Source: an uncultured Planctomycetaceae bacterium (GTDB lineage Bacteria; Planctomycetota; Planctomycetia; Isosphaerales; Isosphaeraceae). From it: DNA of 64,000 nt. The stretch lies in assembly GCA_963833985.1 (NCBI GenBank), contig CAWIAD010000001.1, forward strand, positions 3,040,001 to 3,104,000. Direction: 5' to 3'. Shown here piece by piece: positions 52,615 through 57,061 of the stretch (position 1 is its first letter; each line of letters begins with the position of its first letter). Position numbers and translations under genes: made by a program. The notes beneath the pieces were generated by a model, which worked only from the letters and a program-made list of their open reading frames with translations, was not told the origin of the DNA and searched no databases.

Positions 52615-53081
52615 TGCGAAGACTCGTCGGGATCTCGAAGAGAACCAGGTCCAGCCGCTTGCCACCGGGAACCGATGGACCAGCCGCTGGAAACGAAGCC
52701 TCAGGAATGCGGGGCAGCCATTGAGAGTCTGTCCCACATGGGGAACAATCAGAGGCCGACGGCCCTGGCCAGGTATGCGGAACAAGGGGATGAGACCGGT
52801 GAAACGGGCCTGCCGCTGGCGAGCCTCACGGGTTGACCCTCAAGCCTCTCGCGTGGGACAAGATTCCATTCTTGTCTCTTCAAATCTTCTGATGATCCTC
52901 TCGTTTCGTGACAAGATGTAGAGTCGAGGTGTGGCGCGGTGGGCTCGAGTCGATGGCTCGGCTGGGCCTCGTTTCCACACCCCGCTCATCAAACTGGACG
53001 GGCGGTGTTCCCGCATCCAGCTTTCGGACAAGGCTTGTCTCATCGGTTGAGTTCACACGTTCGCTCACGAAACCATCGCGG

Positions 53082-53681
53082 CTAGGTTCGTTGCAGCTGG
53101 TAAAGATGCAACTCCTGGTGCAGGTATCTGTCAGGGTAGCGTCTGAGCCCCTGACCCGGCACCTTGAACTTCGCACACAACCACTGACGTACCCGGTAGC
53201 GGACGTGGTGGTTGACTTGGCGATAGGCTGGGCTCACCGTTCCGATGCGAAAATAGTTGGACCAACCGCGGAACTTGCGATTGATCCGACCAATCTGCAT
53301 CTCGACGTCCTGTCCAGTGGTCTGGCGCGTCGTCATCGCACTGATCTCGCTGCACAGCCGAATGATCTTCTTCCGCGATGGGCGTGACCCTATGTAGGAT
53401 CGGCCCGTTCGTCGGTCGTAGTTCCGGCCGAGGGTATAACCCAGAAAGTCGAACGTCTCCTCAGGCAGGTGGCACAGCCGCGTCTTGGTCTCGTTCACCG
53501 TTAACTTCAGCCTGGACATCATCTTCCGCATCACCGTCATGGCCTCTTCGGCCGTGCCGCGACAGCAGATGACGAAGTCGTCCGCATAGTTGACGATTCG
53601 CGCGACCAGACGCCGCTCGTGTCCACCAGTCTTCCATCCCTTCACAAATCGTCGCATGTAGATGTTGGACAACAATGGTGA
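53082..53681 (-). pseudogene. Group II intron RT/maturase, C-terminal part (interrupted)
   Basis: SPLLSNIY..YADDFVI..LKLTVNETKT..FDFLGY, then maturase X domain (RGWSNYF); no endonuclease domain. Confidence 0.92.
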
Positions 53682-55335
53682 GATCACGCCCCCAACAATG
53701 TTGCGAACTACGTTGTTGGGGGCCTTTCTCAAAAGGGGACGGACTGACCCGATACACGATGCGGACCTCCTGCTCGTCGATCTCGACCTTCTTCACCAAG
53801 GCCCGAACCACCTCCCGTCGCGTGGCCCAGTCCGGCTCTTGCAACCCTTGCGAGACGCGACGTGCGAACTCCTCCAACTGACCGATCACCAGTCGCAATT
53901 CCGCCTCTTGGGCGGCCTCGCCGATTCGTTGTCGATGCTCCTCCGCCAATCTCGAGAGGCGCGTCCTTGCCGCCGAGATCCGGGGCTCGAACTCCGATTT
54001 GTCGAGCAACCCGTCGCCGTAAGCATCGATTAATCGAGAAATCATCTTTTTCACATTATTTATCAATTTGCCGAGATGCTCCACCTCCTGATTCGGCCCG
54101 CCCTGGGCACCCTGCAGCCGCCGCTCGTACTCCTCCCGGACCCGCTCCGGCTCGGACAGGAGACCTCGTAAGTCCTCCCAGACGGCAGCGTCAAGGATAT
54201 CGGTGCGGATCTGCTTGTTCCAGCAGAGGCGCTGCCCGCCGAAACGATAGGCGTCAGAGCCCGTGCAACGGTAGTACGCGTAGCGGACCCTACCCTTGCC
54301 CTCGAACGCGGCTCGGCTCGTCGGCTTGCCGTAGCAGCCGTAGCCGCAGCGCTTGCAGACGACCAGGCCCTGGAGCAGATATCGGCCACCGCCGGGCCGG
54401 TCGCGACGGCGTTGCCGGTTCTCTTCAAGCTGGGCCTGGACAGCCAGGAAGAGGTCTTCGCTCACCAGCCCGGGGACTTCAATGAAGATTTGATCTTCCG
54501 AGGATGTATCAACCCGTGAGACCGGTCGCCGGGAGTGTTCGGGGCGGCCTCGCTGCGGGCGGAGGCGTTGAGGTTTGAACTCACCTGAGCGCGTCTTGCC
54601 GAAGGCCGCGGTCCCCTTGTAGGCAGGGTTCTTGAGGATCAACCAGACCGTCGCGCGATCCCAGGCCGATTTCCCGGTCCGCGTCGGGATACTGTCGCGC
54701 CGGAGGCGTCGGCACACCTCGCCGATCGAGCACCGTTCCTGACCCACCCATTCGAAGATCTTCCGCACGACCCGGGACTCTTCAGCGAGGACCTGATAAC
54801 GCGCCTCGCCACCTCCCTCGTGCTTGCCGATGTAACGGTAGCCGTACGGTGCGCCGCTGAGGACGTTGACCGAACCGCGGCGGGCGGCGTGTTGCTTGCC
54901 CCTGCGGCAACGCTCCATGATCTTGGCGCGCTCGTATTCCGCGATCATTCCCTGGACCTGAAGCAGCAGGTCGGCTTCCGGACTGCGGCCGACGGGGTTG
55001 CGCAAGAAGACGACCTCGACACCGCACCGGATAAGTTCCTCAAGGATCAAGACCTGATAGGCATACTTGCGTGAAAGTCGATCCGGATCGAGCATATAGA
55101 GGCGGTCGATGGCTCCAGCGGCGGCTTGGTCCCGAAGTCGCTCGAGTGCCGGTCGGGCCAGGATGTAACCGCTGACGCCGTCGTCCACGAAGTGCAGTTC
55201 GGGCTCGCATTCCAAGCCATCAGTGGCGATCCGCTGAGTGACCGCCTCGAGCTGGCTGGCGATCGTGTCCTCCTTCTCCTGCTGCTCCCCCGAAACCCGG
55301 GCGTAGAGCGCCACGCGGAGATTGTCCGTGATCAT
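53461..55335 (-). CDS. Large serine recombinase (resolvase + recombinase + Zn-ribbon + coiled coil)
   Basis: ALYARVS (catalytic Ser), DDGVSG..RPAL, DRLSR, AEYER, APYGY, LKNPAYKG, LLQGLVVCKRCG..YYRC. The last 73 aa are encoded outside the element. Confidence 0.95.
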   Translation of the reverse strand: MITDNLRVALYARVSGEQQEKEDTIASQLEAVTQRIATDGLECEPELHFVDDGVSGYILARPALERLRDQAAAGAIDRLYMLDPDRLSRKYAYQVLILEELIRCGVEVVFLRNPVGRSPEADLLLQVQGMIAEYERAKIMERCRRGKQHAARRGSVNVLSGAPYGYRYIGKHEGGGEARYQVLAEESRVVRKIFEWVGQERCSIGEVCRRLRRDSIPTRTGKSAWDRATVWLILKNPAYKGTAAFGKTRSGEFKPQRLRPQRGRPEHSRRPVSRVDTSSEDQIFIEVPGLVSEDLFLAVQAQLEENRQRRRDRPGGGRYLLQGLVVCKRCGYGCYGKPTSRAAFEGKGRVRYAYYRCTGSDAYRFGGQRLCWNKQIRTDILDAAVWEDLRGLLSEPERVREEYERRLQGAQGGPNQEVEHLGKLINNVKKMISRLIDAYGDGLLDKSEFEPRISAARTRLSRLAEEHRQRIGEAAQEAELRLVIGQLEEFARRVSQGLQEPDWATRREVVRALVKKVEIDEQEVRIVYRVSPSPFEKGPQQRSSQHCWGRDLTIVVQHLHATICEGMEDWWTRAASGRANRQLCGRLRHLLSRHGRRGHDGDAEDDVQAEVNGERDQDAAVPPA

Positions 55336-55700
55336 GGTTTGTCAAACCCCCCCGACCTTGGACTGGATAGTGTGGACCACAGTCGCGTGGTTGCGGCTGG
55401 GTCGCGGCCGATCCAGGCGCTGCGAAACGACCGGGATCAAGACCTGATATGCACGCGCGATCAATTGCTCCTGAAGCCGAGTGAACTCGAAGTGGCGGGT
55501 GACAGGAGGACTGAACGTGGGCCTCCGTGGGGACGTGATCATGTCGACTCCTCCTCTCCGAGAGCGCGGCCGCCAGCCTGCCTTGGATCGGGATCGAGTC
55601 GGGGCTGCCATCCGTGCCCGTACTTCGGTCGAAGCCGCGATCTGGAAATGACAGAGTCAGGAATCAGGGACGATTTTGCAACATTGTTGGGGGCGTGATC
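53682..55700 (-). mobile_element. Minimal large-serine-recombinase element with 23-bp terminal inverted repeats
   Basis: GATCACGCCCCCAACAATGTTGC (53682-53704) and its perfect reverse complement (55678-55700). Removing 2015 bp leaves one GATC and restores the RT frame (GTPQGAPI-SPLLSNIY). Confidence 0.92.
55342..55542 (-). CDS. Small accessory protein upstream of the recombinase (66 aa)
   Basis: Strong RBS GAGGAGGAG 5 nt before ATG; MITSPRRPTFSPPVTRHFEFTRLQEQLIARAYQVLIPVV..; stop 6 nt before the recombinase ATG. Confidence 0.7.
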   Translation of the reverse strand: MITSPRRPTFSPPVTRHFEFTRLQEQLIARAYQVLIPVVSQRLDRPRPSRNHATVVHTIQSKVGGV

Positions 55701-56395
55701 GGTGCACCTTGCGGTGTACCCATCCCCTGGTCTTTATTCCGGGTCGTTCGATGGCGCTGCCCCTTCCCGTCGGTTTCTTCCACCGGTGTTTCCAGCCACA
55801 TCTTGATCAGCCGCAGGACGCGACCGTCGCTGATGCGCCGTGACGCCGATTTCATTAACTCGGAATGGGGTATGCTATCGAAATATCCAGATAAGTCCGC
55901 GTCCACCACCTCGGTGTGCCCCGTCTTGAGCAGCCGTTCGACTTCGCGGACGGCGTCCAGGGCGCTGCGCTCCGGGCGGTAGGCGTGTTGTTCCGGCTCC
56001 AGGTCGGCCTCGAAGATCGGCTCCAAGACCAGCACCGCAGCCATCTGCACCACACGATCCTTGATGCAAGGAATGCCCAGCGGCCTTTGCTTGCCGTCCC
56101 CTTTGGGGATGTACACGCGCCGCACCGCCTGGGGTTGATACGTCTCCTTACGAAGTTGTTCCGCCAGTTCGTCCAGCCATCGTTCCTTCCCGGACGCCTC
56201 GATGTCGGCGAAACTCTGGCCGTCGATCCCCGGTGCGCCGCCGTTGGCACGGCAGCGTTCGTAGGCGAATCCCAGAACGTCACGTCGATAAATCTTGTCG
56301 TACAGGACGTAGAACCGATAGTTGGGCGCGTTCTTCGCTTTGGTGTGCAACGCCGTCTGCAACTTCCCGACCTTCAGTGGAGGTGATAGACTCAC
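55697..56395 (-). pseudogene. Group II intron RT/maturase, N-terminal part (interrupted)
   Basis: RFYVLYDKIY, GAPGIDG, RVYIPKGDGKQRPLGIP..DRVVQ, YRP.RSA.DA, VVDADLSGYFDSIPH, GTPQGAPI. Confidence 0.93.
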
Positions 56396-57061
56396 GCCAA
56401 TCTCCCGGCTGTCTGCCGCTTGTTGCGTTGACCTTGAACCAAGGCCCCTTCCCTCGACCGGAGTTACCCGGCGTCGACGGTACTACGGGCCTCTCCGCCA
56501 CCCCAGGCAGCCCGGCCGGTCCCTCGCGGGCGTCCGGTTGAGGGTCACGCGCCCTCACCGCTTGGGGTTTCCCGTGTTGTGTTGATCTCCGTGTGCCGAC
56601 ATGCCGTCGTCAATACCCCGGTGGCCCGCTGGGTTCTGATCGCTCGTGGGGCGGCCTATTCCAACCGTTTCCCTTTCATCCCCAGCGACGGCGGCCTTCC
56701 CCATATTCCAGCAAGGTCGGCGACCACATTGGACTTTTCGAGGCCTGCTCAACGTTCACTCGCGTTACGGCCTGTCGGTTCGCTGCATCGCCAAGCGACA
56801 CATCTGTCTCGAAGGCTCCGACGGTTTCGTCTCCTCCACCGCCGCTCCGATAGCTACCGGCTGGAGCGACCCAGTTGCCGGGTGGGAGTTACACCCACTG
56901 AAGACCAACACCTTTCCACGGCGCACCGGAATCGTGTCCCACGAGGCCGGACCTCATTGCATGGACTCTGAGAAGTTTGACGCAGATGAACGAACGAATC
57001 AAGAGTACAGGTGTTCCGAACCACGTGCTGTCTTTCATTCAGCACAGACCGGCCGCGGGGC

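Follow-up and report, generated by a model that had tools for sequence, protein, structure and literature searches.

How serine integrases keep to one direction of recombination is a central question, both for the enzymes themselves and for their use in genome editing. The genes of classical phage serine integrases remain whole in the integrated state. The integrase of phage Mx8 and those of SSV-type archaeal elements belong to the tyrosine family, the latter with tRNA genes as targets. According to the accessible text of the reports on Mx8 and Mx9, attP lies within the integrase gene, host residues replace the C-terminus of IntP on integration, and a regulatory switch has been proposed on these grounds (PMC6070905, PMC4383910). 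Likewise, the accessible account of SSV-type integrases describes an int gene that is interrupted upon integration by its internal att site (PMC5861418). We describe here a minimal element in which the gene of a serine enzyme is cut in a comparable way, and we follow the displaced part of that gene from a planctomycete to the Wolbachia phage WO.

The locus lies in the window, a stretch of 64,000 nucleotides from the genome of an uncultured Planctomycetaceae bacterium. Positions 53683-55697 form a 2015-bp element composed of terminal inverted repeats, a 66-aa ORF and the gene of a large serine recombinase (LSR), and its insertion point is the PQGxxISP motif encoded by the reverse transcriptase (RT) gene of a group II intron, a gene that it splits as GTPQGAP/ISPLLSN (Table 1). 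Its ends are a 26-nt inverted repeat (53682-53707 and 55675-55700, 96%). In silico excision of the 2015 bp reopens the RT frame (432 aa, again reading GTPQGAP/ISPLLSN), and in the integrated state the frame of the RT 5′ half continues to a stop at 55664. The Rfam matches within the host intron are RF02003 at 56760-56900 and RF00029 at 52943-53025, the latter below its gathering score. The 5′ exons of the intron, in the window (56927-56945) and at its genome copies, share the consensus GTGGGACAcGAtTCC, which is common to 12 copies and is likely the intron target. In the integrated state, the LSR reading frame (55335-53461, minus strand) encodes 624 aa; at codon 551 (..QHCWGRD) it runs through the right repeat, and the 73 aa that follow come from the RT 3′ half, read in a frame other than that of RT. 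The circle obtained in silico gives the same gene 603 aa, with 52 extra codons and a TGA at 55541-55539 that overlaps the ATG of the small ORF at 55542. Both states had been proposed by a sequence-only reading of the window, and both were reproduced. The circle would be coding over 2009 of its 2015 bases (1812 + 201 - 4, plus a 6-nt gap).

Table 1. Features of the element and of its host intron in the window (RT, reverse transcriptase; LSR, large serine recombinase)
Feature	Position	Strand	Basis
Group II intron (host of the element), 5′ GTGCG to 3′ ..CTCTAC	52918..56926	-	Rfam RF02003, RF00029; flank divergence among genome copies
Intron RT gene, 5′ half, up to PQGAP	55700..56395	-	RVT_1 positions 1-127
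Left crossover dinucleotide AT (inferred 2-bp core)	55698..55699	-	
Left terminal repeat (attP half), also circle-tail codons 1-8	55675..55697	-	
Displaced recombinase 3′ end, 52 codons + TGA, attached to the LSR in the circle only	55539..55697	-	
Small-ORF Shine-Dalgarno (GAGGAGGAG), source of the tail's EEE	55548..55556	-	sequence
Conserved 66-aa ORF, motif FE.xR..L..AY..xP; candidate recombination directionality factor (RDF)	55342..55542	-	
Large serine recombinase, 551 codons within the element, without stop	53683..55335	-	Resolvase, Recombinase, Zn-ribbon domains
Right terminal repeat (attP half), within the LSR frame	53685..53707	-	
Right crossover dinucleotide AT, codon 551 positions 2-3	53683..53684	-	
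73-aa tail of the integrated LSR, incidental and host-derived (from an alternative RT frame)	53461..53682	-	
Intron RT/maturase gene, 3′ half	53082..53682	-	RVT_1 positions 121-205, GIIM

The recombinase has the features of its class, i.e., an N-terminal resolvase domain with the catalytic serine, a recombinase domain and a zinc ribbon with a coiled coil; S15 and the cysteines C327, C330, C357 and C371 are invariant in 57 aligned LSR rows, and Foldseek matches the enzyme to serine integrases. The crossover is also that of an LSR: imperfect inverted arms flank a 2-bp core, excision is precise, and one genome has both empty and filled sites. In addition, attP lies within the integrase coding sequence so that integration changes the protein. 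In the structural model the three domains finish at about residue 530, and residues 532-551 are predicted with a pLDDT below 50, as a disordered linker; the tail-less enzyme is therefore probably intact and the tail an add-on module. The tail-less form is plausibly active, since its zinc-ribbon domain would be complete by residue ~530. Several other assignments were considered and rejected. Membership of the Mx8/SSV type fails on the family of the enzyme, tyrosine there and serine here, so that the resemblance is one of working. An IS607-family serine transposase is excluded by the NF033518 score (26 bits vs. a cut-off of 110) and by the 551-aa LSR architecture; the multi-targeting LSR clade with DUF4368 (PF14287) gave no Pfam match, its sole lead being a weak Atlas feature (0.76); and the best NCBIfam profiles for SCCmec CcrB/CcrC and XisF scored about 100 bits, far under their cut-offs (900 and 375 bits).

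The source genome holds 11 full copies of the element with 99.9-100% identity. Seven of them occupy the intron in the same orientation as the window's copy and encode an LSR of 624 aa with the 73-aa tail. Two more occupy the intron in the opposite orientation (LSR of 598 aa, tail of 47 aa). Of the other two copies, one lies at a different site (LSR of 573 aa, tail of 22 aa), and the second is frameshifted and lies at a further site outside the intron. The enzyme had initially been credited with two tail variants, one for each state. This does not hold for the integrated tail, which simply follows from the flanking DNA (73, 47 or 22 aa in this genome, 0-372 codons in homologues); the 73-aa tail is thus a property of the site and not of the element. 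The same genome has two intact intron copies without the element, and contigs that skip exactly 2015 bases were found in seven of eight sequencing runs, in related organisms of 82-85% likeness. To judge from these genomic traces, the element is active. The occurrence of filled introns at different sites suggests, in addition, that the intron has spread with the element inside it, RT being supplied by intact copies. At window position 53667, a synonymous site (base 15 of the RT 3′ half), a C is found in the same-orientation filled introns examined (six full and one decayed), and an A in both empty introns and in the opposite-orientation copy examined. The copy outside the intron (G000 C2:5865418-5867434), in which the LSR is frameshifted, has AT as its left core and TT as its right core. 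In a decayed intron with an internal deletion (G000 C2:4627300-4628480), the same site in RT holds the right end of an element that is older and 81% identical.

Homologous loci were gathered in two scans (the best 79 of 548 and the best 80 of 577 confirmed candidates). They provided 136 loci that span nearly the whole LSR, or 137 with the window; both repeats were placed in 101 elements (the window's and 100 homologues), while 36 were dropped with an end off the contig or weakly scoring. By the flank rule, RT fragments adjoin 60 of the 101 elements (23 in the same orientation, 33 in the opposite one and four flanked on both sides by a 5′ half); by eye, the same PQG/ISP flank is present in many of the remaining elements. 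The elements insert preferentially at the PQGxxISP motif of RT genes in group II introns and do so in both orientations, and the family parasitises group II introns across Planctomycetota, Chloroflexota and Pseudomonadota. The core dinucleotide is variable (AT in 87 of 202), and the left and right cores are identical in 49 of the 101 elements; part of the mismatches may be assembly chimeras of multi-copy elements. The codon that holds this variable core begins with T in a single element of 101, so that the core can hardly ever create a stop. Other arrangements were observed around the elements. In L007, L055, L081, L084, L051, L119 and others, the same RT half is found inverted on both sides, with exact inverted flanks in L007 (152 nt) and L055 (76 nt); such arrangements are inter-copy rearrangements or assembly artefacts. 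Some left-end insertions yield in-frame fusions of an RT 5′ half with the recombinase tail, as in the proteins P0022, P0062, P0358 and P0359. A second, distant LSR gene lies at most 3 kb from the element in L006, L011, L037, L038, L053, L057 and L160.

The read-through noticed in the window's element is kept in all 101 elements: when circularised in silico, none contains a stop ahead of its right end, and the LSR-to-tail junction is in frame in 100. Beyond that junction, 100 of the 101 elements lack stops in the LSR frame over the first 96 nt of their left end; for the other two forward frames the figures are 2 and 37 (among the 66 non-redundant elements, 65 for the LSR frame and 2 and 27 for the others). 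Two elements depart from the pattern, L026 with an early stop and L104 with a frameshift. The median length is 52 codons for circle tails (IQR 52-70, range 7-111) and 28 for integrated tails (IQR 12-65, range 0-372, n = 81; a further 20 ran off the contig). Across phyla, the circle tails align on NNVAK, a hydrophobic strand and I.R..LR..YG, and the conserved part corresponds in the window to about the first 36 codons (55590-55697). Over nt 25-108, dN/dS is 0.28 (0.22-0.35; 37 disjoint pairs) vs. 1.24 and 1.69 in the other forward frames. The value for the window's clade is 0.41 (0.56 past nt 45), that for the other clades 0.23; the last third of the tail is weakly constrained (0.58-0.63), and the LSR body is under stronger constraint than the tail (0.13). 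No ATG or GTG precedes the conserved part in the tail frame at the window's left end, which makes the joined form the best explanation for the selection. Free of stops in the LSR frame and under purifying selection as protein, the left end is a displaced recombinase 3′ end.

Selection on this stretch could also act on the DNA, as an att arm or a promoter, in which case the open frame would be a by-product and the tail functionless. Promoter-like motifs do occur in clades other than the window's: an extended -10-like TGnTAGAGT stands at +31 of the left end in 20 of the 66 non-redundant elements, and elements of the L091-L130 type have a sigma70-like promoter (TTGCAA / TACACT) made only across the circle junction (12 of 66). 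AlphaFold gave the tail alone a pTM of 0.26 and no elements, hence no confident fold, and the tail profile had no matches in Pfam or the PDB. In the window region a sigma70 promoter search returned no match, and the left end of the element gave no signal of RNA structure (z +1.67). A functionless tail is nevertheless very improbable. Third codon positions are the most variable (0.42 vs. 0.63 and 0.66), and dN/dS is 0.27 without the promoter-like stretch; together these two patterns largely refute it. Furthermore, the tail is kept in phage WO at 40% LSR identity.

The joined protein exists. In the metagenome protein P0333, QHCWGRD leads straight into the circle tail within a single chain, with 84% identity to the window's LSR over 422 aa and 77% to its tail over 52 aa. 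It is the only joined protein among the 120 closest listed of 875 relatives, the rest of which carry arbitrary flank tails; as one of 120 listed, and from one 1509-bp contig, it may reflect a circle, a dimer joined head to tail, or a faulty assembly. The recombinase of the Wolbachia phage WO (WOVitA1; KX522565.1 and HQ906662.1) is a homologue with 40% identity over 99%. It measures 579 aa in the particle genome and 550 aa in the prophage, with 534 codons common to both, and the two forms diverge at an AT core in the same repeat motif, the particle form into a homologous tail and the prophage form into 16 host residues. Part of the WO tail DNA is found at the far end of the prophage record. The match of the WO tail to the tail profile is modest (11.4 bits, in a targeted search of nine sequences), and the BLASTP alignment of the protein to P0333 spans the tail. 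The WO attP was sequenced from purified particles and confirmed by Sanger sequencing, as the accessible text relates (PMC5062602), and the WO literature, in the text accessible to us, maps attP and makes no remark on an altered C-terminus.

Other searches returned no further joined form. The joined junction of the window's element was found in none of the viral contigs, none of 401 genomes, none of the 159 loci and not in its own genome, and there was no back-joint in the contigs of the eight runs; the junction is a near-perfect palindrome that assembles poorly, so that its absence says little. In a protein search with the tail profile, no LSR C-terminus lay upstream in the 120 listed of 202 matches, which are flank read-ins at left ends, nor in the 117 new identifiers among the 150 listed representatives of a further search. 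A search with the P0333 junction produced 55 matches, and the seven examined included no additional joined protein. The earlier proposal that recombination rewrites the tail of the enzyme is strongly supported, as the tail is a conserved and selected peptide that is present in real joined forms; the same evidence rules out the coincidence of frames that had been held possible.

The small ORF is the sole other gene of the element, and its product is the only candidate for an RDF. Its dN/dS is 0.28 (11 pairs), its product belongs to no Pfam or NCBIfam family, and its Atlas leads are below 0.9; that it might be a free copy of the tail was rejected (profile comparison probability 0.3%). A small element-encoded protein adjoining the integrase gene is the context of an RDF, and a homologue, gwv_1155, is located upstream of the WO recombinase too. 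This gene (L161, KX522565.1, 1814-2089) was detected with 19 bits in a targeted search and is a candidate directionality factor of WO.

The sequence-only reading had also proposed that the ATGA overlap couples translation of the small ORF to that of the recombinase in the circle only. With small-ORF starts placed by motif, the overlap is real in 38 of the 101 circularised elements (20 of the 66 non-redundant ones) and limited to these. It marks two separate clades (2 changes in a quick-search tree of 57 rows without frameshifts), so that local selection for coupling is possible, and codon 2 of the small ORF keeps its A although the residue may be I, T, S, K or N. It is nonetheless improbable that the read-through exists for the sake of coupling. 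Among the other tails, 37 run 15-65 nt into the small ORF and 6 run further (thus 43 of 101 enter it by 15 nt or more), 10 stop upstream and 10 are unresolved, and the small ORF starts steadily 130-175 nt from the left end with a Shine-Dalgarno of its own. In WO the tail is followed by an unrelated gene on the opposite strand, gwv_1155 is far from the tail and the ATGA is absent. In addition, coupling requires no conservation of amino acids, yet the tail is constrained as protein. Limited to two clades and absent from WO, coupling is not a general switch.

We lean towards a role of the attP-spanning tail in setting the direction of recombination. Under this proposal, an integrated copy, with its 551 residues and an arbitrary host tail, would make only the tail-less enzyme and would have to excise. 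The tail-less enzyme, with the 66-aa protein as RDF, would release the 2015-bp circle, which would then encode the full enzyme, lengthened by a conserved peptide of at least about 35 residues. The tail is predicted to be a hydrophobic strand that follows a flexible linker; by docking on the zinc-ribbon domain it would close off the RDF site. The tailed enzyme would integrate, and integration would strip the tail again. This exact route, in which the tail shields the circle's enzyme from the candidate RDF, is put forward tentatively. Extra C-terminal β strands have been proposed, speculatively, to block the RDF site in some LSRs, and Ccr enzymes have been modelled with extra C-terminal strands, according to the accessible text of the same paper (PMC12286644). 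A complex prediction with the LSR, the small protein and the tail (partner = tail) scored 0.00 and carries no weight either way. In its widest form, which we regard as possible and advance with reserve, the proposal extends to the whole LSR clade, from 2-kb elements that parasitise introns to phage WO: direction would be set by gene surgery, the tail acting as an anti-RDF and its loss turning the enzyme into an excisionase, and the minimal element would be a fully coding 2015-bp loop that also hitchhikes within mobile group II introns.

The same anatomy would fit a dial of activity or stability, as in Mx8, with the tail giving a more active or longer-lived enzyme, its loss on integration damping recombination and limiting copy number, and the small protein alone setting direction. 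We consider this unlikely, although the new 3′ end alters the activity of the Mx8 integrase without abolishing it, in the accessible text (PMC6070905), and although arbitrary host tails of 0-372 codons could promote degradation. Host tails are too variable for a uniform effect, and in five of the 101 elements the frame closes at the junction itself (0 codons in L035, L055, L098 and L144, 1 codon in L148); moreover, the integrated form would still have to excise to begin the cycle.

Whichever part the tail plays, two natural forms of one enzyme that differ by a defined peptide make the question of direction directly testable. The database entries for proteins of this clade are based on integrated copies, and their tails are arbitrary; the real tail is found in 1 of the 120 closest listed relatives. 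Cloned members of the clade may be the wrong form, including the phage WO recombinase, which has been suggested for Wolbachia transformation in the accessible text of one report (PMC9203015).

Full-text literature searches returned no attP-split LSR and no LSR element that targets intron RT genes, nor did the accessible text of PMC10083194, PMC12884075, PMC4853749, PMC9203015 and PMC13439711, although ISfinder, TIGER or the supplements of papers may list one; the main text of PMC10083194 does not contain the words "reverse transcriptase." With the integrases of phiC31, Bxb1 and A118/LI and the multi-targeting LSRs, as far as the accessible text describes them, the enzyme shares its domain order and crossover at a 2-bp core, together with inverted att arms of ~50 bp and relaxed targeting of multiple sites (Durrant et al., PMC10083194). 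Phage WO shares a homologous recombinase, the same repeat motif, an AT core, a tail across attP and a small ORF upstream, and it differs as a 65-kb prophage with a non-coding target. In comparison with the SSV-type integrases, the loss on integration is limited here to the tail beyond the linker, and all three LSR domains stay intact. Mx8 is a phage, whereas the present element is a 2-kb unit of two genes, encodes an LSR and receives an arbitrary host tail across many sites and in two orientations. An att site within the integrase gene is already known in tyrosine enzymes; here it lies in the gene of a serine enzyme, for which the literature searches gave no precedent.
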